Of a DNA stretch of 64,000 nt, positions 3,545 to 50,141 are shown one piece after another; the stretch's first letter is position 1; every line of letters starts with the position of its first letter. A program made the translations under genes and the position numbers. Source of the DNA: Eledone cirrhosa (Eukaryota). The notes beneath the pieces are model-generated. The model worked only from the letters and a program-made list of their open reading frames with translations. It had not been told where the DNA came from and searched no databases. The stretch spans positions 37,572,001 to 37,636,000 of the forward strand of contig OZ024743.1 in NCBI GenBank assembly GCA_964016885.1, given 5' to 3'.

Positions 3545-3822
3545 GTGTATATACACTCACACATATATATATATATATGTATATACATATATATGTATAT
3601 ATATATATATATATATGTAAACTTTTATATGTAATAATCTCCCATTAGGTTGAGATACACATTTGGCTGTATTGTGTTGTGCTTTATAGCAAAAAAGCCA
3701 CCAGCCGTAAGCAACTACCACACCCCTTCCAACCTGACCGCTACTACGTCACGATTCTTAGCCATTTTGAATGAATTCTTGGCGTGATCACTTTCAAAAA
3801 TTTAGTGTCTAGATCAGAGCAA

Positions 3823-3907
3823 ATCTCCTGATGAATCCGATGCTCGAGCTACATAATTATTACATAATTATTGTAACTCAAAATGCTGACGAAACCATGG
3901 TAGAGGT
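3823..3907 (+). ncRNA. Type I hammerhead ribozyme motif with long stem II insert
   Basis: atctc-CTGATGA-(~56 nt)-GAAAC-CATG-GTA-gaggt. Stem I atctc/gaggt, palindromic stem III ACCATGGT, GUA cleavage triplet. First stem II pair is mismatched (A-C). Confidence 0.65.
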
Positions 3908-4165
3908 ATTTAAATGTATTCTATTTTCTCCTAGTTTATTTTACACCTAATTCTGTTTAATTGACTGTATCTAGGCGATTACGCTGTCGAAATATTCGAT
4001 AAATATTCCATTGCGGCCGACGCGAAGGGCTAGTTTCGATTATTTGTTGGAGATTTCTTCATAGAAGCCTCATTCTTATAGCCTGGTCTATTCGATTTTT
4101 TATATAGTTAATTACGCTAATTGGGAGAGGAAATGGTATATATTTTATCTTGTGATTCTAAAGAC

Positions 4166-4206
<41 letters not shown>

Positions 4207-4211
<5 letters not shown>

Positions 4212-6836
4212 TGGAATAAATGCTCTGAAATAGCGATATATATGTGAATATAGACATAGAATATTCGAAAATATTCTGTATGTTTATAATAAACATTTTG
4301 AAGACCTAATCGCTATAGAATAGAATACGTCACGTATTACAATTAGATTCTCGATAAAAGCAAGGGAAGTAATCTACGCGTTTCATTCTTGTTAGAAATC
4401 ATCAGGACTACATATCCAGTGCTTTTATCGAGAATGACACAGCTAGAGACTTATAGAATACTTAGCTGTGTACAGGAACTGGTTTGAAAGAGCGGTTGCC
4501 GGTCCGGCAGAAATTAGAAATTGGAATAAATGCTCTGAAATAGCGATATATATGTGAATATAGACATAGAATATTCGAAAATATTCTGTATGTTTATAAT
4601 AAACATTTTGAAGACCTAATCGCTATAGAATAGAATACGTCACGTATTACAATTAGATTCTCGATAAAAGCAAGGGAAGTAATCTACGCGTTTCATTCTT
4701 GTTAGAAATCATCAGGACTACATATCCAGTGCTTTTATCGAGAATGACACAGCTAGAGACTTATAGAATACTTAGCTGTGTACAGGAACTGGTTTGAAAG
4801 AGCGGTTGCCGGTCCGGCAGAAATTAGAAATTGGAATAAATGCTCTGAAATAGCGATATATATGTGAATATAGACATAGAATATTCGAAAATATTCTGTA
4901 TGTTTATAATAAACATTTTGAAGACCTAATCGCTATAGAATAGAATACGTCACGTATTACAATTAGATTCTCGATAAAAGCAAGGGAAGTAATCTACGCG
5001 TTTCATTCTTGTTAGAAATCATCAGGACTACATATCCAGTGCTTTTATCGAGAATGACACAGCTAGAGACTTATAGAATACTTAGCTGTGTACAGGAACT
5101 GGTTTGAAAGAGCGGTTGCCGGTCCGGCAGAAATTAGAAATTGGAATAAATGCTCTGAAATAGCGATATATATGTGAATATAGACATAGAATATTCGAAA
5201 ATATTCTGTATGTTTATAATAAACATTTTGAAGACCTAATCGCTATAGAATAGAATACGTCACGTATTACAATTAGATTCTCGATAAAAGCAAGGGAAGT
5301 AATCTACGCGTTTCATTCTTGTTAGAAATCATCAGGACTACATATCCAGTGCTTTTATCGAGAATGACACAGCTAGAGACTTATAGAATACTTAGCTGTG
5401 TACAGGAACTGGTTTGAAAGAGCGGTTGCCGGTCCGGCAGAAATTAGAAATTGGAATAAATGCTCTGAAATAGCGATATATATGTGAATATAGACATAGA
5501 ATATTCGAAAATATTCTGTATGTTTATAATAAACATTTTGAAGACCTAATCGCTATAGAATAGAATACGTCACGTATTACAATTAGATTCTCGATAAAAG
5601 CAAGGGAAGTAATCTACGCGTTTCATTCTTGTTAGAAATCATCAGGACTACATATCCAGTGCTTTTATCGAGAATGACACAGCTAGAGACTTATAGAATA
5701 CTTAGCTGTGTACAGGAACTGGTTTGAAAGAGCGGTTGCCGGTCCGGCAGAAATTAGAAATTGGAATAAATGCTCTGAAATAGCGATATATATGTGAATA
5801 TAGACATAGAATATTCGAAAATATTCTGTATGTTTATAATAAACATTTTGAAGACCTAATCGCTATAGAATAGAATACGTCACGTATTACAATTAGATTC
5901 TCGATAAAAGCAAGGGAAGTAATCTACGCGTTTCATTCTTGTTAGAAATCATCAGGACTACATATCCAGTGCTTTTATCGAGAATGACACAGCTAGAGAC
6001 TTATAGAATACTTAGCTGTGTACAGGAACTGGTTTGAAAGAGCGGTTGCCGGTCCGGCAGAAATTAGAAATTGGAATAAATGCTCTGAAATAGCGATATA
6101 TATGTGAATATAGACATAGAATATTCGAAAATATTCTGTATGTTTATAATAAACATTTTGAAGACCTAATCGCTATAGAATAGAATACGTCACGTATTAC
6201 AATTAGATTCTCGATAAAAGCAAGGGAAGTAATCTACGCGTTTCATTCTTGTTAGAAATCATCAGGACTACATATCCAGTGCTTTTATCGAGAATGACAC
6301 AGCTAGAGACTTATAGAATACTTAGCTGTGTACAGGAACTGGTTTGAAAGAGCGGTTGCCGGTCCGGCAGAAATTAGAAATTGGAATAAATGCTCTGAAA
6401 TAGCGATATATATGTGAATATAGACATAGAATATTCGAAAATATTCTGTATGTTTATAATAAACATTTTGAAGACCTAATCGCTATAGAATAGAATACGT
6501 CACGTATTACAATTAGATTCTCGATAAAAGCAAGGGAAGTAATCTACGCGTTTCATTCTTGTTAGAAATCATCAGGACTACATATCCAGTGCTTTTATCG
6601 AGAATGACACAGCTAGAGACTTATAGAATACTTAGCTGTGTACAGGAACTGGTTTGAAAGAGCGGTTGCCGGTCCGGCAGAAATTAGAAATTGGAATAAA
6701 TGCTCTGAAATAGCGATATATATGTGAATATAGACATAGAATATTCGAAAATATTCTGTATGTTTATAATAAACATTTTGAAGACCTAATCGCTATAGAA
6801 TAGAATACGTCACGTATTACAATTAGATTCTCGATA
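4207..6836 (-). repeat. Tandem array of a 310-bp hammerhead-containing unit (retrozyme-like): 8 full copies plus a 150-bp partial
   Basis: Unit starts at 4207, 4517, 4827, 5137, 5447, 5757, 6067, 6377 and 6687. No differences seen by eye, no ORF reported in the track, and the left end abuts (TA)n. Confidence 0.97.
4369..4411 (-). ncRNA. Type I hammerhead ribozyme (copy 1 of 8; others at +310 intervals up to 6539-6581)
   Basis: Minus strand reads GUAGUC CUGAUGA U-UUCU-AACA-AGAA-U GAAAC GC GUA GAUUAC: intact CUGANGA and GAAA boxes, 6-bp stem I, palindromic stem III ACGCGU, GUA triplet. Stem I is extended by a perfect 16-bp helix (4347-4362 with 4420-4435). Confidence 0.85.
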
Positions 6837-6886
6837 TTTTCGAATATTCTATGTCTATATTCACATATATATCGCTATTTCAGAGC
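6834..6886 (-). repeat. 53-bp inverted (fold-back) copy of part of the 310-bp unit
   Basis: Exact reverse complement of 6702-6754 (gctctgaaatagcg...cgaaaatat). Confidence 0.95.
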
Positions 6887-6902
6887 TGGGAATTCTCCCG
6901 TT

Positions 6903-8342
6903 CTATTGCCAGTTGCAGTAGATGTCCGCCAAGAGGCTTCCGAACAAGTCTGGCATCTGTACATAAAGTTCATAGGGCAGACCATCCAAATTACCCCTTG
7001 TGCAGCTAGTCATTGCCTCCCGTACTTCAGCGGCTGTTATCGGCTTTTCGCAACACTCCACCTCAGTGGCCGAGAGCCGCGGCAGTCCGTCGAGGTAGAC
7101 ACTAAAGTCCATCCCTCGATCCGACCAGCCGCTACCCCCGAACAACGTAGCGAAGTGTCGCTGAAAAGCTTTAAACATTTGCCCGGGATCGAGTAGCATG
7201 CGCCCGTCGTGGTCCACCAAAGACCGGATCGTAGCTTTGTTGCCACGACGCGCCTCCGCCACTCGGGCCCATTGAATGGCTTTCGTCCCCTCGTGTCTGA
7301 GAGCACGCACCCTAGCTGTTCGTGCTTTGCATTGAAGAATTGGTCAAGGGCCAATTTCGCCGCAAGTGCGTCGGTCGCGATGCCTTTGCTAAGCGCCTCG
7401 TCTAATTTTCTAACTAATTCTCCCTCTGTTCTATTTTTCTCTATTGCTAAAGCCTTACTGAACCTAATGGACTCTATTCTAATTGTCTTTTCAGAGCAAA
7501 CCACCACTTGTTGTTGACGATGGCCCCCGTCAACGCCCGCTTAACTAGTTCGCTAATCCGGTCTCTGTAGGTCTTGCGCGCTGGTAAGGACGCGTTTAGC
7601 TTCAAGTAGCCGGGACCTCGTCTAAGAAGCCTATCTAAGTCAAGTACACAGATCACGAATTTGTGGTCCGTGTAGCTGACTATCTTGAATTGTGGACAGC
7701 CTATGCTAGACCTATCTATTTCCCTACAAAATACTCTATCTAGATATGATCTGGATGACCCTATGCTATTTGTCCCAGTCCACATTGGCACATTCGGGAA
7801 ATCTAATCGGTACCTGTCAGACAGTTCAAAACGCCTGAGCACGCTGGTGAGGCTCTTGCACCCTCCTCCTCTATCCGCTAATCCCACACAGTCCCAGCGT
7901 GCATCTAAGATCCCGTTCCAGTCGCCTACTAACACTAAAGTTCGGGACGTTCCAAGAAAGGTCTCCAGACGCCGGAACAAATCAGGCCGCCCTGCTCCTG
8001 TCGGGGCATAGACGGCCACTAGCCTTAAAGCTTGGCCGTCTCAGCTGGTCACGTCCAGCACCACCAACTTACCTTCTGGGTCCAAGAAGATGGCACGTAT
8101 GGCGAGATCCAAACCTCTCCGAAAAAGCACAGCAACTCCTCCCCCCGATCCCGGACGGCTGGGAGATGCGTACACATCGTAGCCGCCGAAGTCGGTGCTA
8201 AGGCCCGTGCTTCGGAGATTCTGCTCTCGCTGATGGCCACTACATCTATGTTTAGTGACCTGAGGTCGTTGAGCAGGTGACCCTGCTTCCATGACGACCC
8301 AAAGCCACGCGCATTTATGCTGCCTATTCTGAGTAAGATCAT
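6903..8342 (-). pseudogene. Frameshifted ORF2 N-terminus (APE endonuclease and linker) of LINE copy A
   Basis: Split across ORFs 8049-8342, 8041-8376, 7474-8019, 7037-7507 and 6903-7310. Confidence 0.88.
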
Positions 8343-8437
8343 GTTGAAATGGAGTGGAAAAGATGGGAAAGACCACTTACCTTGCTTCTCGTAGAGGAAG
8401 GACGGTTACTCCATCCTTTTCACTGCTTGTGGCCTCC

Positions 8438-10001
8438 TCAGGAGAGTGCTTGTCGGAAGTCTCCGATGTCTTTGGGGAATTTTTGTTTTAGTGTCATGTA
8501 CGTTTTCTGTGTGATGCGAGTGATTTGTATGTGTGGAGGTGGTGTGAACTTTTGGGTTGTTGTGTTGTCTTTTTCTGTGATGCTGGTGTTGTGTTGGATG
8601 TAGTGTAATAATTGGTTGTTGTTCAAATTTAATGCTGTGTAGTGTGATTCGTTTTGGTTGTTTTGTTTTGTTTGCGTTTGTTGTGGGTTTGTTTCTGTTT
8701 CGATTTTTAGTGACTTTTGTGGTGTTGGGGTTAATGATGGTGTTGGTCTTTGTGGTGATGGGGTTGGTGATGCTGGTGTGGATGGTGGCATATCTGTCCT
8801 ATCTTTTTTGTTTGATAGTTTATTTGTTTCCCTCCGTATTTTGTTTTTGGAAGGGGAGGGAAGAGAATTTTTTCTTTTTTGGTTTCTTTTTTCCTGATAC
8901 CGTTTCCCACTCCTCGTCGTCACAATCTGTCTCCAGTTGTGATAGGCCGGGGAGTGGAAAATCCTCCACAGGCGTTGGTTTTAGTTGTAGCGTGGTGGGT
9001 GGTGTAGGCGCTGGTGCTAGTTCTGGCGCGTTTGGTGGTGGTGGTGTTGGTTGTGCTACTGTTGATGGGGTTGTTGCTGTTACAGTTGCTCCTGTTGTTG
9101 CTGCTATAGTTGTTGCTGCCATCTCTGCTGCTGGTGGTGTTGATGGTTGAGTTACTGGGGTGGGTAAGAGAGGTGGCCTCAACCTTTTAGCCTGAGGGCA
9201 GAAAGCCCTCCACCACAAACGACCACAAACGACACACCTAGGCATTCTGCCCTCGACGATTACAGTGAGGTGGCTGCCGTCAGTGAGGTCTATTACCTCT
9301 GGGATCTCCTCAATGCTTTTTTGGTCCGCTTGGATCAGGAGCTCCATCCCTGATCCGGACCAGTTCTCCTGCTTTTCTTTCGCTATTTCGATTATCTTGG
9401 TGTTGGCGTCGATGCCGGCGAGGACTGCAGCTATTAGCCAGGGAATTTCGATGGCACGTGGAACGTGGGTGACCCTGATCTTTACGAGTCTCTGGCCACA
9501 ATAGCTTGGGACGAGTGTGAAGTCGTCACTTCTTAATGGGTCCATGGAGTGTTCTCTAGCCTCCTGTGGTGTTTCAAAGAACACGTCCACGGTTCCATAT
9601 CTTTGCCCACGTCTGATGTGGGTTTTTTTTGCCCACACATGTCCCAAAGCTTTTTGGATTTGGGACTCGGATGCCCGTTCCACTCGGCGCGATTTTATAT
9701 TAATTGTTCTATAAGACACGGTGCATAGGCGCCGATGCTCCATTTTATTAGGTGTGTGTGTAGGGGGGACCCTGTACCCATCTTTCTTTACCATTTTTTT
9801 GGCTTCTCTTAATTCCTCCTGAGTTACCTGAAATGCTTCGCACTGTTTTGCTACTCTGTCAAAACTCAGGGTGGTTTTCTTAATGTCATTGTTGCTGTTG
9901 TTGTTATCGTTATTTTTGTTATTATTAATTTTAGTTTCAGTTGTGGTGGTGGTGGCGTCAGTGGTGTTCGGTGTGGAAGAGTTCATTTTGGTTGAGTTCA
10001 T
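8438..10001 (-). pseudogene. ORF1 (gag-like) of LINE copy A
   Basis: 393-aa ORF 8820-10001 plus frameshifted tail 8438-8923. Homologous to ORF1 of copy B, with a degenerate zinc knuckle (CVVCGRLWWRAFC) and a Pro/Thr-rich tail. Lies upstream of the APE ORF. Confidence 0.8.
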
Positions 10002-10489
10002 TTCGATATCACGAGTTAATTAATTTTTTTCTTTTGTTTCTGTTGTCACGTTGGTGGTGGGGGTGGTGGTTGTCGCGGTGGTGGTTGAGGTGGCGGCATT
10101 AACACCTGCAGTCATTGGTAATAGCGGGAGATGAATGTCTGCCTGAGACAAATTTAAAATATTGCTACTGCTTATAATTTTAGTGTTTGGCAAACGTAGC
10201 AATATTTACAGTGGTGGTGTCGGTGTGAGGTGTTAGTTTGTGAGGAAGGAGTGAACCTGAGTCATCCATGATTTTTAAAAGAATAACTTTTGTTTGATAA
10301 TTATAAAAGTTTAAATTTTGGGCTCAAGGCCCCAATCCTTTTGGGTGTCCTTTTCAGATAACAATGTATGTGCACATATATACAGTTAACAATAACAAAT
10401 TTCCATGAATGGCAATTTTAAACAACTGAAAATAACAAACCTTTGCGGAGCTCACGATGATACGATTTAGATTTACTACGTAGGTCGCC

Positions 10490-10538
<49 letters not shown>

Positions 10539-12370
10539 GGATGGATAGACTACAGAAAGGCATTTGACATGGTGCCTCATTCTTGGATCACCAAAAGCCT
10601 GGAGATCTTCAGGGTGGCAGATAACATCAGACAGTTGCTGGGCAGGAGTCTGGGGTCCTGGGAGACAGAGTTGACATCAACTGGAGAATCCTTGGAAAGC
10701 GTGAAGATCAAGAGAGGTATCTTCCAGGGAGATAGCCTGTCCCCTCTGTTGTTTGTCCTTGCCCTAATGCCCTTGACCATTATGCTGCGAAAAGTGAGAG
10801 CAGGATACAAGTTGGGAAGGGGAGAGCTTACCATCAATCACCTCCTCTTCATGGACGATCTTAAGCTCTTCGGGAAAAGTGAGAAGGAGTTGGATGTGCT
10901 TGTTGACACTGTCCGTATTTTCAGCAGTGATATATGTATGCAGTTTGGTATTGGTAAATGTGGAGTCATTGTGATGAGGAGGGGTAGGTTGAGCAGAAGT
11001 AGCGGGATCCAGATACCAACAGGTGAGATGATAAAGGAAATTGACTCTGAGGAAGGATACAAGTATTTGGGCGTTCTGGAGGCTGATGGCATAAAGAACA
11101 AAAAAATGAAGGAATTGTTAAGAACTGAATACATTCGGAGAGTAAGGAGCGTATTGAAGTCACATCTGAACAGCAGAAATGCCATAAGCGCAGTAAATTC
11201 CCGAGCTGTGTCTATTATTAGGTACAGTGCGGGAATTCTGAGATGGAATGTTGCTGAACAAAAAGAAATGGATAGGAAGACTAGGAAGCTATTGACTATC
11301 TACAACATGTTCCACAAGAGGAGTGATGTCGATAGACTCTACCTAAGGAGATCTGAGGGTGGAAGAGGTCTTATCAGCATAGAGGACTGTGTTCAGATGG
11401 AGAAAAACAACCTATACAAATACGTGACCTATAGTAAGGAGCCAATGCTCAAAACAGTACTGAAGGAGGGGACAGTAGGCCAGGGGATGTCCAAGGAGGA
11501 AATAACATCAAGGAGGAAGAGCAGCCTTAAGGGAAAATCCCTTCATAGTACCTTCTTTGAGAAAACTGAATTTAGAGATCCACAGACATGGAACTGGTTG
11601 AGAAGAGGAGACCTCAAAAAGGCTACAGAAGGAATGATAATGGCTGCGCAGGAGCAGGCCCTCAAAACGAAGTGGTTGAAGCACCATATTTACAAGGAGG
11701 AGGCTAGCCCACTGTGCAGGATCTGTGGAGAGAGAGAGGAGACTGTGGCTCACATTGTGTCCGAGTGTAAACACCTAGCCCAGACCCACTATAAGGGCTG
11801 GAGACACGATGTGATGGGCAGGGTGATCCACTGGCACCTGTGCAAAGTAAACAATTTACCACACTCTGAGAAATGGTATGAGCATAGGCCGGAGGCGGTG
11901 ATGGAGAACAATCAGGTGAAGGTGCTGTGGGATTTTAGGATACAGACGGACAAAAAACTGGAACACAATAGACCTGACCTGGTGGTTGTGGACAAAGAAA
12001 AAAGATCGTGTCTGATTGTGGATGTGGCCTGCCCGTTCGACACGAGAGTGCAAGAGAAGGAGAGGGAGAAAATTAACCGATACCAGGACCTAAAGTGGGA
12101 GGTGAAAAGGATTTGGAACTGCCATGAAGTCAAAGTGATCCCGATTGTCATAGGCGCACTGGGGACTATCTCCAAAAGTTTCCAGGGATGGTTAAAGAAA
12201 ATCGGCCCCTTCACGCTTTTTGGAACGCTTCAAAAGGCATGCTTGCTTGGAACAGCAAGAACCCTCCGATACGTCCTGAATATCTGAGGCTGCAGGTAGT
12301 GGCTTGATATTCATTCCAACGGACTTTCCAGTTAACCAACATCAATGACTGAGATTCAAGGAATAACAAC

Positions 12371-12402: not shown

Positions 12403-12404
<2 letters not shown>

Positions 12405-12782
12405 TTTTCTTTATTAACCACAAGGGTTTACATAAAGTAGACATTAAGGACAGTACAGAACAATACAGGACGGTACAAATGGGCATTTCTGCGTGTAAAA
12501 ACAAAAACAGAGGATGTAACAAAAAATAACAATGAAAAAAATTCCCCAATAGGGGGGAGACTTCGGAGGGACATTTGTGGAGAAAGCCCAGTAAAAGGCC
12601 ACAATGACCCTGACCACCAAGGCAAGTGCCCTCTCCCAGTTTTCCACCTTTAATTTACAGATATATACTCAGAGTAGGCCCATTCACTCGGGCCATTCTT
12701 GCTTCTCTCACCCATCTTTCAACAAAATGCTGGGAAGAGAGCACTTCCCTCTCTACTCTGATTTTCCTTTTCAAATGAAATT

Positions 12783-15442
12783 TTAAAAGTCAATCAGAGC
12801 ATCACCGAAGAGGTAAGTGCTCGTCTTCAGCCCTTTCAAACGTGTCCACCATACTATCTCTTTCGCCATGGCCACCAGGCAGATAAAAACTGCCTTCCCT
12901 TCCCGGCTAAAGGAGGAGGGCGGGGCAATCCTCACGATGGACTCAGATGATAGCCGGATCCGTCCTAAACGCGACAGCAGGTGTTCGACATAAACCCACA
13001 AGTCAGCAATGCTCGGACACAGGACGAGTGCGTGCAGGACGGTTTCGTCGCCCTGCGCGCATCTCGGACATGCCCGGCTGACGGCACCTCCATGCCTGTA
13101 GAGTTTATCCCGAACTGGCAAGGCTCCTCGGTAGCACTGCCAGGCCAGAGATTTCTGGAAGTTGTCCATAGGCCCTGGCCCGAAAGTTCTTCCGAAGAGA
13201 TTGGCTAGTTGATTTTCGTCGACGCCTAGAGTTTCTCCAAGTACGTCGTCGCTCTTCCCCTCCACTAATCCTCTATAGAACGCCGAGGTGGAGTTTCCAC
13301 CGATCACATTGCTCGATTGGTCGAGGACTGTAGGCGCCTGAAGACATTCCAGTCTCCAGGCTCTCCCTCTCGGTCTTCGCTTGACCCAGGACTGCAGCTC
13401 CGTCAAGGAAACGAGCTGGGGAAATACGTGTCTAGCAAACGGCGACCACACCTGATCACCGTCGAGGAAGAGGTGGAGATGTCGTAGCCTGAGCGCGTGC
13501 CTGCGCATCATCAGCCACGGCTTGCCCAGCCCTCCACGTAGCGGGTGTTGACAACAGATAGACCGCCTGACCATCGGAGCGCGTCCCTTCCACAAAAAGC
13601 GAAAGAGCAAACGCTCCAGCGCAGTCAGGCGAGGCTTAGGACAAGGTACGACGGCCAGGCGGTAGCAGATGACAGACGCAATGTACGCGTTAGCCACCTC
13701 CGCTCGACCTTTCAGGGACAGCTTCCTCTCCGTGAGAGAAGCCACCCTGCTCGTCACCTCGTCCCAGTTTTTGTCCGTCTGGAGGTCCGGACCGAACCAG
13801 ACCCCTAGCAATTTAACCGGTCCGTCCGTCCAGCGTCCAACGACGCTGTTGGACGTCATGGACCTGCTTCTCCAGGTGCCGAGCTGCAGGCCCACTGACT
13901 TTTCCTGGTTGATCATTGCTCCTGTCACCGCTTCGTATTCTCTTAGTGTAGTGCCGATCGCCTCGATGTGTTTGGCGTTCGACACCACTACGGTGACATC
14001 GTCCGCATATGCTGACACGAATCTTCCGCATCCTAGTTCGCGCGGGACGCCCCTCAACGTCTCCAGTTTGTGCAGTAATGGCTCGAAAGTCAATACGTAC
14101 AAGAGGGACGAGAGGGGACATCCTTGGCGGACCGAGCGCATGATGTTGAACGGTTTCGACAGGTGACCGTTCACTCTCACCACAGAGCAGATGTTGCTGT
14201 GCATGGCAGCGATCCAGCCTCTGAAGACGGGCCCAAAGCCAGCCGCCCTCAGGACTGCGCTAGGTAACGATGGTCGACCCTATCGAAAGCTTTCGACTGA
14301 TCTAAATTGATCAAGAACCCACCCGTGCCAGGTTCCCTAGCTACCCTCTCTACGATGTATCGCATTAGGTGGAGGTTGTCGTGGATGGATCTGTCGGGAA
14401 TGGCGCATGTCTGCGACTCTCCCACCAGACCACCAACGACAAGCGCCAACCTCTCTGCTAGCACCTTGGCCAAAATCTTGAACTCTGTGTTTAGCAGAGT
14501 TATGGGCCGGAAATTATCTATGTTATCCCCCTTGTTCGGATCCTTTCTCAGCAGTGCCAGCGCTCCCCGGCTCACAGAACTGGGAATTCTCCCGTTCTGT
14601 TGCCAGTTGCAGTAGACGTCCGCCAAGAGGCCTCCGAATAAGTCTGGCATCTGTACGTAAAGTTCATATGTAAGACCATCCAAACCAGGCGATTTACCCC
14701 TTGTGCAGCCGGGTCCTCGTCTATGAAGCCTATCTAAGTCAAGCACACAGATCACGAATTTGTGGTCCGTGTAGCTGACTATCTTGAATTGTGGACAGCC
14801 AATGCTAGACCTATCTATTTCCCTACAAAATACTCTATCTAGATATGATCTGGATGACGCTATGCGATTTGTCCAAGTCGACATTGGCACATTCGGGAAA
14901 TCCAATCGGTACCTGTCAGACAGTTCAAAACGTCTGAGCAGGTTGGTGAGGCTCTTGCACCCTCCACCCCTATCCGCTAATCCCACACAGTCCCAGCGTG
15001 CATCTAAGACCCCGTTCCAGTCGCCCACTAACACTAAAGAGCGGGACGTTCCAAGAAAGGTCTCCAGACGCCGGAACAAATCAGGCCGCCCTGCTCCTGT
15101 CGGGGCATAGACGGCCACTAGCCTGAAAGCTTGCCCGTCTCCGCTGGTCACGTCCAGCACCACCAGCTTACCCTCTGGGTCCAGGAAGATGTCCCGTATG
15201 GCGAGATCCAAACCTCTCTGAAAAAGCACAGCAACTCCTCCCCCCGATCCCGGACGGCTGGGAGATGCGTACACATCGTAGCCGCCGAAGATCGGTGCGA
15301 AGGCCCGTGCTTCGGAGATTCTGGTCTCGCTGATGACCACTACATCTATGTTTAGTGACCTGAGGTCGTTGAGCAGGTGACCCTGCTTCCATGACGACCC
15401 CAAGCCACGCGCATTTATGCTGCCTATTCTGAGTGAGGTCAT
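12783..15442 (-). pseudogene. ORF2 (APE-RT-CCHC) of LINE copy B
   Basis: ORFs 14249-15769 and 12783-14204 with a frameshift near 14250. About 600 bp of linker is missing relative to copy A. Confidence 0.9.
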
Positions 15443-15789
15443 GTTTAAAATAGAGTGGAAAAGATGGGAAAGACCACTTACCGTACTTTTGGTAGAGGAG
15501 GGATGGTTTTTACATCCCTTTTCACTTGATCGTCTGGTGAAGGGACCGTTTAATCGTCCCTTCGGCTGGTCGTCGGGTCTTCTATGAGTATGTCCGAATA
15601 TACTCTTCGATTGTGAGTTCCTCCTAGGTCCCTGAGGGAATTTCGTTTTAATGTTTGTGTATTGTTTCTGTGCTATTTTTAGCAGTCTTATGTTAGTTGG
15701 CGTTTTGATTGGTGCTGGTATTATGTAGTCGTGTTGTGAAATGTCTGTGTGTTCAATTATGTAAGTCATTAGTTTCTTGTTGTGTGTAT

Positions 15790-17547
15790 TTATTGCCGTG
15801 CATTTGTTTTTCTGGGGGTGGGGTGTGGTTCTGCTATTTTCTTGTCGTTGTTGCTGGGTGTGTGTGTTTTGTTGTTGTGTTTACGATATTGGTGCTTGTG
15901 GTGGTGGTGTTGAAGGTGTTGTTGGCGGTGGGGTTGTCGCCGGTGGTGATGGTGGTGCTAGTGTGGGTGGTGATGGTGTTGGTGGTGTTGCTGCTGTGAG
16001 TCTCTTTGCAGTAGACTTTACCCTTTTCTCATTTCTTTCCCCCTTTTCAAAGGCGACGATGCGCTGCTTCTGCGTTTGTGCCTTCTTACGACCTTTTGCC
16101 ATCCCTCTCCCACCTCACACTCCATGTCTGATTCTGTGAGGTCGGGCAGGGGTACCAGCTCCACTCTTTCACTTGTTGTTGTTGGTGATGTTTGCACTGG
16201 AGTCTCTGTTGCAGCTGTATTTGGTATTGCTGTTGTTGTTGTTAATATTTCCACTGCTGCTGCTGTTTTTGATTTCCGTGGCGTGGGTATGGGTGCCACG
16301 GACCTATCGTTCCTGGTTGCCGCTTGTCCTGTTGCTGGTAGCCGTGGAGCCGGTTTCGGAAGGAGGGGGTTTTCTCCTTTCTCAGGGTCTTCTCGTTGCA
16401 GAAGGCCCTGAGGTGAGTCTTTGATCCACAGCGAAAGCATTTCGGGCGTTTGCCCTCAACACTTATGGGCAGTTGAGTGCCGTTATCGAAGTCTATCACA
16501 TCCGGGATAGCTTCGATGCACTCCTGGTTGGTTTGGATTAGCATCTCAATGGAGGTGCCGACCCAATCTTCTCTTACTTTTTTCTGTACTTGCAGTACAG
16601 TTGTTTTGTCCTCGATTCCGACGAGGACAGACGCGGCCAGCCAAGAAGAGGCCATCCCGGGGGGGACGTGGGTCAATTTTTTGCCCGCAGTAGGAGGGCA
16701 CCAACACCATTTCCTCGTTCCTTAGGGTCACTAAGGATTGAGCCTTTGCCTCCTGGGGTGTGGCAAAAAGTACGTCTACGGTGGCATATTTTTTGCCTCG
16801 GGTGATGTGCGTTTTCCGCTGCCACACAGACCCCAAGGCTTTTTGTATTTGAGCCTCTGTGGCTCTTTCAACCCTACGGGATTTTGTACTTACTGTACGG
16901 TACGTGACCGTACAGTGCTGTTGGGTTTCGAAAAATGTTTCCGTTGCCTTGCAGATTGCTCGGTGTCCAGTCTTTGTCACCATCTTCTTCGCTTCCTCTA
17001 ATTCCTCATTTGTTATGAGGATTGTTTCCAGGTTTTTCGTAATACCTGCAAATGAGATTTGTTTTTCTTTGCTGCTGTTGTTGTTGTTGTCGTCAGAGCT
17101 GCTGTTACTTTTGTTGTTGCTGCAGGTACTACGATTACTGCCTCCGCCGCTGATGCTGTGGTTGTTGTTGGTGTTGCTGCTGCTAATGCTGTTGTTGTTT
17201 ATGCTGCTGGTGATGCTGTTGCGGCTGCTACTGTTGTTTTCATTGTCACTGTTGCTGTTGTTATTACGGCTGCTATTGCTATTATTCCTGACGTCAGACG
17301 AATGAAATGGGTTTTCGTATTTCCCGCACACCTGTTTCGTCGTTGTCGTCGTCGTCGTGGAGAAATCTTGCACGCTTTGCACGAGACTTTTCTTTTTTGT
17401 CGTCGCTTGCGAAAGAGAAGGGAGGGAGAGAGACACATTTAAAGAAGGGAGGGAGAGAGACAATCTTCTCTCTGCTGTAGTGATGATTGAGGAAGAAGAA
17501 GACGGAATGAGTGGGAGTGACCTATGAAAATTCTTTTTCGTAGCCAT
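15790..17547 (-). pseudogene. ORF1 of LINE copy B (frameshifted)
   Basis: ORFs 16546-17547, 16242-16676, 16018-16440 and 15881-16102. CCHC knuckle CFRCGSKTHLRAFC and an Asn/Ser-rich N-terminal tract. Confidence 0.8.
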
Positions 17548-17765
17548 GTTGGTTTTTTTTGTTTAAAATAAATATTCGGCACAAAACCCCAATAAGCAGT
17601 TATTTAACCCCGAAGGGCCAAATAACAGGCAGAAAGACCCTCTGTCACGAGGAGGAGGGTGTTTTTGTCTACAAGTTCGTTAAAGTTTTAAACAATTTAC
17701 AATTGTTATAGCGTTCAAAATTTACAATACTTTACAGAGCCGAGCCTCCGTCAACCATAGCATTC

Positions 17766-17803
<38 letters not shown>

Positions 17804-18059
17804 GAAGAAGAAGAAGAAAACGCACATGGTGGATATATATCGTTATGGAATCGCTCCCGTACGTTTTTGATTTTTACTTATTTAAAACAACTGTGATAGA
17901 ATAATTATTATTACAAATGAAGTATAAAATTACAGTTATTACGCTCAGCAAGCCATAACGCTTCACTTTACGCCATAGGGCCCCAATATTTAATATTTAA
18001 TTTTGGATCAGAAATGTTATAGTCGAACAATGATAGTGGGAACAATGATAGTGGGAAAC

Positions 18060-20914
18060 CTATGAACCTAAGATTTGTAGACAGGAAAAAGTTAAAAGAA
18101 ACAACAGCTAAGGTAAACAAAGTCATCCCATACCTTGAGGCGAGGAGCCTTCACCAGTGCAACAATATCCTCAAAGCAACAGCAAATGCGGTGAGGAAAT
18201 TACTTGGCATAACAGCGAGAGGAAATAACAAACAAGATAGATCAGAACCTTGGGGGAAGAAACGACTGAATGGTCAAATCAGGGAAATGAGAAATGACAT
18301 TGGAAAGCTTGAGTTCCTACTGAATGGGACACTAAAAAACATAGACACTAAAAATAGACTGGAAATAAAGTACAAAACTAGGAGGAAAAAGCTAAATATT
18401 ATCATAGAGGAACTGAAGCAACGCATTGTAGCAAAGAGTGCAAAAATTAGGCGATACGAGAGCAGAGTCAGTCAGTATAGACAGAACCGCATGTTTGATA
18501 ACAACCAGAAGATGCTGTTTGGACAGTTGAAGGGAAAGAAAGAGGCAACGACTTGATCCCTGAAGGCGGAAGAAACTAAGACATTCTGGAGAGGAATATG
18601 GGAGCAGGATGTTAAACATAATGACCAGGCAGTGTGAATTGAGACAGTACAAAATGAGATAGTGAACAGGCACACCAACAAACTGAATTGAGTATCACAG
18701 TTGAAACTCTTAAGGGGCAGGCTAAAAAAACTAACCAACTGGAAATCACCAGGCCCATCTCTCCACCCGAAACTGACAGCCATGTTCAATGACTGCTTGG
18801 TGTCAGGAGAGGTACCAGAGTGGTTGACAAAAGGTACACAGTTCTGGTAATGAAAGACCGAATCAAGGGTAATGATGTTACCAACTATAGACCTATCACA
18901 TGTCTGTCCGTAATGTGGAAACTGTTGACAAGCATTATGTCTGAGGAAATCTGAGGAAATCTACCATCACCTCCACACAAGAAACTTGTTACCGGACGAA
19001 TAGAAAGGATGCCGAAAGAAGTCGCGTGGTAGAAAGGACCACTTACTTATTGATAAGATGTTAATGAGGAATTGCAAGAGGAGACACACAGGTCTTGCCA
19101 TGGTGCCTCATTCTTGGATCACCAAAAACATAGAGATCTTCAAGGTGGCAGATAACATCAGACAGTTGTTGGGCAAAAGTATGAAGTCCTGGAAAACAGA
19201 GTTAATATCAGCTGGAGAATCCTTGGGTGACCTGAAGATCAAGAGAGGTATCTTCCAGGGAGATAGTCTGTCCCCTCTGTTGTTTGTCCTTGCCCTGATG
19301 CCCTTGACCATTATACTGCGAAAAGTGAGAGCAGGATAGAAGTTGGGAAAGGGAGAGCTTACCATCAATCACCTCCTCTTCATCGACGATCTTAAGCTCT
19401 TCGGGAAGAGTGAGAAGGAGTTGGGTGTGCTTGTTGACACTCTACGTATTTTCAGCAGGGATATATGTATGCAATTTGGTATTAATAAGTGTGGAGTTCT
19501 AGTGATGAAGAGGGGTAAATTGAGCACAAGCAACGGAATCCAGGTACCAACTACCAACAGGTGAGATGATAAAGGAAATTGGCACTGGAGAAGGATACAA
19601 ATATTTGGTGTTCTGGAGGCTGATAACACCAAGAACAAAAAAATGAAGGAATTGATAAAATCTGAGACATTAGGAGAGTAAGGAGCGTATTAAAATCACA
19701 TCTAAATAGTCGGAATGTCATAAGTGCTGTAAATTCCCGAGTTGTGTCTATTATTAGGTACAGTGCGGGAATTGTGAAATGGAATGTTGCTGAACAAAAA
19801 GAAATGGATAGGAAGACTAGGAAGCTATTGATTATCTACAACATGTTCCACAAGAGGAGTGATGTCGATAGACTCTACTTAAAGAGATCTGAAGATGGAA
19901 GAGGTATCAGCATAGAGAACTGTGTTCAGATGGAGAATAACAACCTACACAAATACGTGACCGACAGTAGGGAGCCAATGCTCAGAATTGTACTGAAGGA
20001 GAGAACAATAGACCAGGGGATGTCCAAGGTGGAAATAACAACAAGGAGGAAGACCAACCTTCATGAAAAATCCCTTCATGGTACCTTCTTTGAGAAAACT
20101 GAATTTAGAGATCCACAGACATGGAACTGGTTAAAAAGAGGAGACCTTAAAAAGGCTACAGAAGGAATGTTAATCGCTGCGCAAGAGCAGGCACACATAA
20201 CGAAGTGGGTGAAACACCATATTTACAAGGTGGAGGCTAGCCCACTGTGTAGGACCTGTGGAGAGAGAGAGGAGACTGTGGCTCACATTGTATCCGAGTG
20301 TAAACACCTAGCCCAGACTTACTATAAAGGCTGGATGATGTGATGGGCAGGGTGATCCACTGGCACCTATGCAAAGTAAACAAGTTACCACATTCTGAGA
20401 AGTGGTATGAACATAAGCCAGAGTCGGTGATAGAAAACGATCAGGTGAAGGTGATATGGTATTTTAGGATACAGACGGATAATAAACTGGAACACAATAG
20501 ACCTGACCTGGTGGTTTTGGACAAGGAAAACAGATCATGCCTGATTGTAGATGTAGACTGCCCATTTGACACGGGAGTGCAAGAAAAGGAGAGGGAGAAA
20601 ATTAACCGATACCAAGACTTAAAGTGGGAGGTAAAAAGGATTTGGAACTGCCATGAAATCAAGGTTGTTCCGATTGTCATAGGCGCACTAGGTACTATCT
20701 CAAAGAGTTTCCAATGATGGTTAAAGAAAGTTAGTCCAGCCCCGCTTTTTGGAATACTTCAAAAGGCATGCTTGCTGGGAACAGCAAGAACCCTCCGATC
20801 CGTCCTGAATATCTGAGGCTGCAGGTAGCGGCTTGATATTCATTTCAACAAACTTTCCAGTTAAATAACATCAATGACTGAGACACAAAGAACAATAATA
20901 ACAATGATAATAAT
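18060..20914 (+). mobile_element. R4/Dong-type LINE copy 2, longer but decayed
   Basis: Same RT-RLE motifs as 10536-12287, broken into ORFs 18062-18556, 19058-19339, 19343-19564, 19744-20343 and 20340-20717. Same 3' UTR and a degenerate (TAA)n tail. Confidence 0.9.
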
Positions 20915-20997
20915 ACTGATTTCATTTATTGGCCACAGGGGCCGACATGTACGGGATAATACAAAGACACGTTCACTGGTCGTCTCTACGTTACAAT

Positions 20998-21230
20998 TCA
21001 TAGCGAATGGTCTTCGAAATGTTTTTAATTAAACATGCAGTATTTTATCAAATATACTAGACATATATTCATATATACATCACTATTTCAGAGCAACAAT
21101 ACTAATACCTAAACCGCTCTGTTTAATCAGTTCTTAAACATTACTGGTATTCTATAAGAATCCAGCTTCTATAATTCTTGACAGAATCGAAGGGGTAAGT
21201 AGTCTCGGTAACCGCTAAACGAGCGAGAAT
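20998..21230 (+). repeat. Diverged single partial copy of the 310-bp retrozyme-like unit
   Basis: Colinear blocks shared with the reverse complement of the unit: atagcga..ggtcttc.aaatgttt, taaacat.cag, ctatttcagagca, aaccgctct, cagttc, gtattctataag, gtagtc. Confidence 0.75.
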
Positions 21231-47915: not shown

Positions 47916-47997
47916 ATATATATATATATATATATATACATATATATTACTAATAGGAATATATATATATGTATGTATATATATATATATATATATA

Positions 47998-50079
47998 TGT
48001 AGCGGTTGTCTCCCTTGTTTTGATTAGGATCTAGACGGGAAGTGGAACCCTTTCTGCAACTTCCGGTCAGAGCCCTATAAAACTAACAACTTTAAGCTTC
48101 CTTTCTCTCTTTGCCTTTTCGGCACCAGGTCGAAGAGCCTCTCATTTGGCTCTGCCATTAATTTGGCCAACAGGCGCCTGGCCTTAGCCAGGCGCCCTCT
48201 GCCAGCCGCGTTTGCCTGGCAATCAAAACGGTAACTACTAACTTTGTTTCATTCTAACATCTATCTTTGACATGTCAAGTATTCTATCTACCGTTAATTA
48301 AATATTATATACACAAACATTGTCTCGTTTTGTTACATTCATACAACTCAGTACTTTCGCTATATTGGTAACCCTGACGTGATACGAACACGCAGCCGCT
48401 CATCGCTATAAGTGGTCACCCCCAAAAAAAGAAAAAAATAGCACATCTGGTTTTGTGAGTAACATTACGAATACACAGCAAATTTAGCGACAAACTATGA
48501 AAATACTCAAGGACACGCACACACGCACATGTGGAATTCGCACAGACATACTTTTTCTCTCACGCATCAATTAACTGTCGCATTTCACCAATATATATAT
48601 ATATGTTTCTCGTTTCTTACAACGAACACTTTCAAAACAAAAAAAACATTTCACGATATATATATATGTATCTCGTTTCTTACAACGAACTCTTTCAAAA
48701 CACACAAAAAAAAAAAGAAATTTGATATTCTTTAAAAAACATTTCAACAGGAACATTTATTTTCGATGAACCATTGCCTTTTGTTCATCGTTCAAGTTTT
48801 TTGTTTTTTTCCAAAGTTCACACCTATAATTATGCTGATTGAAGCCTTTCTTTTTCATCATTGTCACTTTCAAAATTGCACTATCATTTTCTCGCGCGTT
48901 AGAAATATTTTTTTTTCAACCTTGTATTGGCACGTGTAGGCAGCATAAATTCTCGATTCACTGAGATGTCTCTACGCACAGACAGCCGCACGCCATTTAT
49001 CACCAGGGATTCTTCAGCCTTAAGCTATATTCTTCTATTTGCCGGTTTATAAATTTACAATGTAAATTTACCGTTGATAACCGCGCATTTATTGGGAATG
49101 CTTATTTCTCTGGTCGCTGGCCTCTTGACCCTTCCAGGTCAACGCATTCTCAACATCGACCATCAACTTCGGCTGCTATTTCTAGCACTTTGCGCAACTC
49201 ATTTTTTTCTAAAAAAAAAATTTTTTTACTGTGAATTTAAACACCGAATACGCTCACTCAGCGAGACAACAGCAGCAGCAACAGCAATATAACAGCAACA
49301 GCAATACATCAACACAGCTTCACCAAAGCCAGAGAATTTATTTTTGCAGCACTCTTCCTGTGAGAAAATCCATTCGGAGGTTGGAAATTTCACGATATAC
49401 CACAGAACAGAAACCACCTGCATTCATTCTCTGGAACACACTTTCTTTCCAGCTGTCATGTGATTGCACACCTGTGAACTATATTTTGAACTTTGAGCTC
49501 TTCTATTACTTTTACTTTATTACATTGTATCTTTGGGTGATGGATAGATGGATGTCCAGTCGTTCTCTGGCCAAGAGCGGTTGGCTACCTTGATATCTAT
49601 CATTGATTTTTCCAAACATTCTTTTGTCGCAATTTTCATGCCTGTTACAACATTCTCGCCAACTTGCTACATATTTTCATTTCGATTTTTATACACTAAA
49701 ATTCTGGCGGGAGGTTATGTAGCGGTTGTCTCCCTTGTTTTGATTAGGATCTAGACGGGAAGTGGAACCCTTTCTGCAACTTCCGGTCAGAGCCCTATAA
49801 AACTAACAACTTTAAGCTTCCTTTCTCTCTTTGCCTTTTCGGCACCAGGTCGAAGAGCCTCTCATTTGGCTCTGCCATTAATTTGGCCAACAGGCGCCTG
49901 GCCTTAGCCAGGCGCCCTCTGCCAGCCGCGTTTGCCTGGCAATCAAAACGGTAACTACTAACTTTGTTTCATTCTAACATCTATCTTTGACATGTCAAGT
50001 ATTCTATCTACCGTTAATTAAATATTATATACACAAACATTGTCTCGTTTTGTTACATTCATACAACTCAGTACTTTCG

Positions 50080-50084
<5 letters not shown>
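47998..50084 (+). mobile_element. Non-autonomous LTR retroelement (TRIM/LARD-like) with apparently identical 367-bp LTRs
   Basis: LTRs 47998-48364 and 49718-50084 (tgtagcg...cgctata). PBS tggtaaccctgacgtgat at 48366 is tRNA-Trp-like. Purine-rich ggcgggagg precedes the 3' LTR. The 1.35-kb interior is non-coding and both flanks are (TA)n. Confidence 0.93.

Positions 50085-50141
<57 letters not shown>

Follow-up and report, generated by a model that had tools for sequence, protein, structure and literature searches.

Tandem arrays of a 310-nt hammerhead-bearing unit in the genome of Eledone cirrhosa were probably written by a Penelope-like enzyme that primes both DNA ends on one RNA, itself probably a circle. 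At the locus described here, a deletion would have removed most of the second of the two resulting arms, together with the 3′ part of a neighboring LINE. The arrays of this family end at fixed sites of two kinds, A and B, which are paired within insertions. The lengths of the two arms are independent, the arms share a haplotype, the junctions carry microhomologies, and the LINE at our locus bears the marks of a resident copy. The enzyme, the circularity of the template, the deletion and the sequence of events are inferred from these features.

The locus and its repeat unit

From left to right, the locus consists of a (TA)n tract, an array of the 310-nt unit, a 53-nt inverted piece and a Tx1-like LINE. 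Its features are as follows, in coordinates of the window (the whole 64,000-nt stretch that was analyzed):

3617-4171, plus strand: older inserted copy from another repeat family with a hammerhead (unit of about 650 nt, long stem II); the 3′ end of this copy adjoins the target (TA)n
4172-4206, no strand: (TA)17.5 target half-site, the inferred primer of arm A; TA-rich repeat is also found at the outer ends of other sampled insertions
4207-6836, minus strand: arm A, 8.48 units of 310 nt, from unit 1 (site A) to unit 150
4207-4250, minus strand: "tail" interval from start site A (unit about 1-4) to start site B (unit 30 or 39), from the end tallies of 54 insertions
4349-4433, minus strand: type I hammerhead motif of copy 1 in a long stem, with minimal helix III and a palindromic loop (motif scan)
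6834-6886, plus strand: inverted piece of 53 nt (unit 68 to 16), probably what is left of a B arm, with a 3-nt overlap or microhomology with arm A
6881-6886, no strand: 6-nt microhomology common to the retrozyme unit and the LINE subfamily
6887-10489, minus strand: Tx1-like LINE copy A, probably resident; its 5′ end is normal and lies at (AAT)n, it has indels private to it, and about 2.2 kb of its 3′ part is absent

This anatomy is as the initial annotation had it. The 8.5 copies counted there are 8.48 identical units, with no mismatch between array copies at 4207-6836, and they are followed by the 53-bp inverted copy and the LINE. As stated, the minus strand carries both the hammerhead motif and the LINE ORFs. 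The array was also rightly said to start away from the cleavage site: cleavage is predicted at 4374/4375, which is unit 168/169, and the array begins at unit 1. The inverted piece matches unit positions 16-68 in reverse complement. Since the array ends at unit 150, the two do not form an adjacent hairpin.

The left end of the locus is a normal A end, lying inside the TA tract that terminates the older insertion, and the 150|68 center junction is of a type ordinary for the family. The anomalous end is the right one, where the inverted piece passes site B to unit 16 and meets the LINE through 6 nt. The microhomology annotated at this junction, by comparison with copy B, needs one correction: 7/9 copies in the LINE's nearest sampled subfamily have the full hexamer, so the match is a perfect 6 nt. 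The chance of a 6-nt microhomology here is 0.13%. Among the contigs listed for read runs X2, X6, X7 and X18, none spans either junction (4/4 runs).

The family of about 650 nt to the left has its hammerhead-like motif at 3828. Its kin are 94-97% identical, some being tandem or inverted, and at 11/11 other fetched loci a copy ends at the same point in (AT)n. Further along the window, at 20982-21205, lie the remains of an older repeat related to the 310-nt unit (about 80% over unit 15-115), which likewise has many dispersed kin, some tandem or inverted. A 370-bp direct repeat, 100% identical, occupies 47996-48365 and 49716-50085, 1.7 kb apart.

Core and stems of the hammerhead motif are found in 8/8 array copies that span it (motif scan), and the fold of the region has z = −6.2. 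At gathering thresholds Rfam gave no match; its best match to the unit, Hammerhead_HH9, is weak (E 0.082, 19 bits, under the gathering score of 52). No stop-to-stop frame of at least 120 aa exists inside the array. Judged by its sequence, the unit is a new member of the non-LTR retrozymes: it is tandem and non-coding (310 nt, against about 170-400 nt in that class), has one type I hammerhead motif per unit, and forms a dispersed multi-locus family that coexists with Penelope-like elements. By likeness to HHR_Amex1, its self-cleavage is predicted to be dimer-dependent. None of the listed sequence runs containing the unit is an RNA run.

Paired ends, arms and haplotypes in the family

One 32-mer of the unit has 4,232 exact matches in the 3.0-Gb genome, a lower bound because variants fall inside the 32-mer. 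Patterns for the two end types match 823 and 887 times on the reverse strand. We built the estimate on these counts, those of the forward strand being inflated by overlapping matches, and put the family at ~1,600-1,800 insertions genome-wide. All sampled insertions lie within the initial ~130 Mb of contig C1; 12 were picked by an internal pattern and the others by one of their ends (A or B). The tally of 54 two-arm insertions leaves aside the insertion in the window, two overlapping loci (L070 and L072), one locus with an end out of reach (L180), L073, whose two copies next to a gap are probably an assembly duplicate, and 14 insertions with one arm or nearly so.

Most sampled insertions are two facing arrays, with the ribozyme-strand 3′ ends outermost and in TA repeat; the initial annotation had called for (TA)n flanks and inverted ends across genomic arrays, and these are what most of the sample displays. 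Where both ends of a two-arm insertion are visible, an A end is paired with a B end in every case (54/54; A+A 0, B+B 0). The A ends (n = 54) fall at unit 4 (36), 2 (8), 307-310 (8), 1 (1) and 12 (1), the B ends (n = 54) at unit 39 (31), 30 (13) and 35-44 (10). Starts are thus fixed at two sites, contrary to the random permutation that had been proposed. The main sites are 26-38 nt apart, and a tail of the Penelope type (30-40 bp) is present at one end only in 54/54. The insertions also have the inverted, 5′-truncated partner of Penelope elements, placed head to head, and the AT-rich or (TA)n target, as measured by the TA fraction of the flanks. These traits across the sample support priming at (TA)n by machinery of the Penelope type, as suggested earlier for this locus.

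A target-site duplication of at least 12 nt is seen in 5/43 insertions (shuffled mean 1.3, maximum 4), most flanks being pure TA. Possible duplications of 25-32 nt, a size near the tail length, occur in the imperfect TA tracts of L032, L082 and L034-L035. At L187, every copy in the array carries a unit variant whose site B is lengthened to a more extended AT run.

The longer arm is A in 22/43 insertions and B in 21/43, and the lengths of the two arms have a Spearman coefficient of 0.21 (p 0.18; both L073 copies are in this set). Arms of up to 27 units were seen. The inner ends are scattered over the unit, and center junctions with at least 2 nt of microhomology number 23/43, against 18% by chance (p 2e-7). 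One-arm insertions occur for A (L174, L183 and L185) and for B, so the second arm is not obligatory. In the 14 insertions with one arm or nearly so, the inner end adjoins a gap in one case, a very short A arm in two and microsatellite in the others.

Where each arm has at least 330 nt, the two arms have the same majority haplotype in 41/43 insertions, against 11.8% sharing between insertions, which means that both ends are usually copied from the same RNA. The initial annotation had looked for homogeneity within arrays and differences between them, and the haplotypes, each fixed per insertion, are of that kind. There are 19 of them, 15 found once only; they are nested, differ by single changes and are fixed across whole insertions. 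Such a pattern points to a bottleneck of one unit and favors a circle. Minority variants amount to 5e-4 per base. Of those in the shorter arms, 2/17 recur at the mirrored position of the longer arm and one more is common to both arms but out of register, as would follow from a degree of copying between arms, from gene conversion or from multimeric templates. A change of haplotype within a single arm was seen at L173, and in one array a variant recurs at a spacing of seven units.

The unit is present in 20 sequence runs carrying 17 organism labels. Four runs were examined: X1 and X3 hold it at trace depth, plus scraps of the LINE, and X2 alone is deep. X21, of which about 1 in 100 raw reads was sampled, has no reads on the unit. 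We considered horizontal transfer and set it aside, as the pattern in these four runs looks like trace carry-over.

Template, enzyme and route of insertion

The route we favor would begin with a Penelope-like reverse transcriptase/endonuclease cutting a (TA)n tract. Both DNA ends would then prime on one, probably circular, RNA, each from its own site (A or B, 26-38 nt apart), and each cDNA would roll round the template for a number of turns independent of the other arm. The two cDNA ends would anneal through a few bases, and fill-in would complete the head-to-head pair of arrays. At our locus, a deletion sealed by the 6-nt microhomology, during or after insertion, would have taken the B arm for the most part, along with its (TA)n half-site and the 2.2 kb of LINE 3′ sequence. 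A narrower version, in which a dimer of the Penelope reverse transcriptase on one RNA circle primes both ends of the double-strand cut, each at one fixed site and rolling independently, seems to us evenly balanced between right and wrong.

In the initial reading the cDNA went repeatedly round a circular template, and this part is upheld for a template that is continuous and likely circular. In 523 passes over the cleavage site only two have a minority variant nearby, and inner ends within 10 nt of that site number 0/84, against 5.7 expected. Few variants and no inner ends there indicate that the template is continuous. Jumping between cleaved linear monomers was rejected, there being no scars or stops at the cleavage site. 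The further argument, that a start away from the cleavage site speaks for a circle, is insufficient by itself, as Penelope reverse transcriptase initiates internally in vitro (PMC11167929). Taken with the haplotypes, the sequences indicate that the template is probably a circular RNA.

The same enzyme could instead prime both ends on uncleaved, linear multimeric transcripts of existing arrays. Hammerhead cleavage is dispensable for Penelope insertion in vitro (PMC11167929), 8/9 tested Xenopus dimers were without cleavage (10.64898/2026.07.22.740005), and the minimal helix III and the few minority variants common to both arms are in keeping with such a template. Yet nested haplotypes with single changes, fixed per insertion and 15/19 of them found once, imply the one-unit bottleneck, and arms reach 27 units. 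We consider the linear template improbable.

Local growth by unequal crossover after insertion of a monomer has also been considered for retrozymes (10.64898/2026.07.22.740005), and periodic or mosaic variants in some arrays do suggest later reshuffling. As the origin of the arrays it is disfavored, and we find it scarcely credible: it leaves unexplained the opposed arms with fixed A and B ends, the scattered inner ends and the single haplotype on both arms, and minority variants are merely 5e-4 per base.

The initial annotation derived the inverted arm from snap-back of the cDNA, followed by a jump to LINE RNA or a resident LINE. In its full form, one primer would give a rolling copy that snaps back and jumps to LINE RNA, so that LINE A is co-inserted. 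The strand orientations fit, and arm A could have served as template for the 53-nt piece. Foreign templates do get captured: at the center of another insertion, between its two retrozyme arms, lies a 272-nt segment from a repeat that clusters on contig C25 (L036:4599-4870). Self-priming is, moreover, the published account of Penelope inverted junctions, where an antisense template is invoked (PMC3846280). However, the template sets an upper limit on the length of a snap-back copy, so the insertions in which B is the longer arm (21/43) and the 10/55 arm pairs in which neither arm is contained in its partner oppose this source of inverted arms. The 150|68 center junction is ordinary, and near-hairpin centers (within 25 nt) are not enriched (10/42, against 6.9 expected, p 0.14). 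Snap-back is not supported as a general route.

LINE A itself also stands against co-insertion. Its 5′ end is at (AAT)n, as in 5/5 full copies, and not at a TA half-site; about 2.2 kb of its 3′ part is missing; its closest full-length relatives, among 30 sampled from about 7,200 pattern matches, share 93.5-93.8% identity with it; and its 9-nt deletion has one match genome-wide, leaving no twin as a source. It has frameshifting indels, whereas the array is mutation-free. By these marks in its sequence, LINE A is most likely an older resident copy and not co-inserted, and the junction is probably an ordinary deletion. The switch to LINE RNA is in this way set aside, and the resident LINE is kept. 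Of what would identify a retrozyme-LINE chimera (a fresh LINE copy, a source locus, a LINE 5′ end at the target half-site), nothing was found. We regard the co-insertion route as very unlikely.

The LINE family (window 6887-10489 and 12404-17765) sits at (AAT)n, often in tandem, with a spacing of about 5.8-5.9 kb. Past the inverted piece, LINE A aligns from 14575 with copy B, which has endonuclease and reverse transcriptase domains. Another non-LTR element is present on the plus strand in two copies, 10538-12370 and about 18000-20915. They are 89% identical, start at (AAT)n and encode a reverse transcriptase and a C-terminal nuclease-like region.

Snap-back could still apply to this locus only: arm A might have snapped back over 53 nt, or the second primer might have been a resected end in the resident LINE, and a long B arm would never have existed. 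The final sequence would be identical. Microhomologies of 3 nt and 6 nt are typical of end joining with templated insertions, and A-only insertions exist. In those, however, the inner ends meet TA repeat directly, and among about 70 other insertions none has an outer end in non-microsatellite DNA. We hold this local variant possible but not likely, and prefer two-end priming followed by deletion.

A candidate for the partner enzyme in two-end priming is a young Penelope-like family, represented at L070:640-3900 (G000:C1:55777139 onward), with an open frame of about 900 aa and a hammerhead-like motif after the ORF. The labels Penelope-like and Tx1-like are tentative and rely in part on motifs. 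The element has 133 scored matches at 99-100%, reverse transcriptase and GIY-YIG-like motifs, and two end sites about 60 nt apart, in (TA)n. Pfam matches to its ORF are weak (none in one search; RVT_1 at E 2.5e-4; an intron endonuclease at E 0.32). Its opposed pairs, paired by eye among 30 fetched loci, are 4/4 long plus short, and retrozyme arms adjoin its ends in L047, L063 and L192. The unit has no significant similarity to this element (248/300 shuffles score as well), and comparison with two Penelope-like families (60 loci) gave no informative homology.

Comparison with known elements

If two-end priming is correct, the arrays would provide direct evidence from the genome for retrozyme movement through Penelope-driven rolling-circle reverse transcription; mobilization via circles by Penelope reverse transcriptase has been put forward as a hypothesis (PMC7229834). 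The inverted copy and one-sided tail of Penelope would also be explained generally, with no antisense self-priming. How Penelope inserts in inverted, one-tailed form, and whether retrozyme arrays arise at insertion or grow later, are questions that the sampled literature leaves open. The very young insertions of this family let arm length, start site and haplotype be read directly, and the sample separates snap-back, local amplification and two-end priming, besides providing a 310-nt substrate and a candidate active enzyme. The titles and abstract openings covered, which take in little of the subscription literature, do not describe retrozymes with paired priming at two ends; figure S9 of PMC7229834 (the life cycle) and the tables of 10.64898/2026.07.22.740005 may bear on novelty.

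In the covered parts of the same two sources, metazoan non-LTR retrozymes have, as here, a non-coding tandem unit (170-400 nt) with one type I hammerhead, and coexist with Penelope-like elements. The axolotl HHR_Amex1 shares with our unit the minimal helix III and palindromic loop. Circular RNA has been demonstrated for metazoan retrozymes; for the present unit a circle is proposed from genomic DNA. The two-armed insertion with paired start sites, usual in our sample, is not described in the portions of PMC7229834 and 10.64898/2026.07.22.740005 covered.

The hallmarks of Penelope are the 30-40 bp tail at one end, the inverted truncated partner and (TA)n targets (PMC8557442). In vitro, the purified protein cuts and extends both strands, and its reverse transcriptase has two internal start sites that bound the 30-40 bp tail; the steps after initiation remained open in that work (PMC11167929). 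Our family resembles endonuclease-positive Penelope-like elements in its (TA)n targets, inverted 5′-truncated partner, one-end tail and two reverse transcription starts (PMC8557442, PMC3846280, PMC11167929). The Penelope literature covered invokes self-priming on an antisense template, whereas the present data speak rather for priming from both ends with the ribozyme strand as template. MRC1 and similar Chlamys elements are likewise non-autonomous, arranged in multiple head-to-tail copies and dependent on Penelope-like machinery (PMC8557442). They have 3′ sequence in common with their autonomous partner and belong to a clade mostly without hammerheads; the present unit has a hammerhead, and no homology to a partner was found in the two Penelope-like families compared.

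Unlike Penelope-like elements, the unit has no ORF, and many turns of a short unit are found in both arms. In twin priming of L1, both target ends prime cDNA on one RNA and the inversion is sealed by microhomology; a linear template is used, and the position of the second priming site varies. In the present family, by contrast, both start sites are fixed, and each arm comprises several turns.
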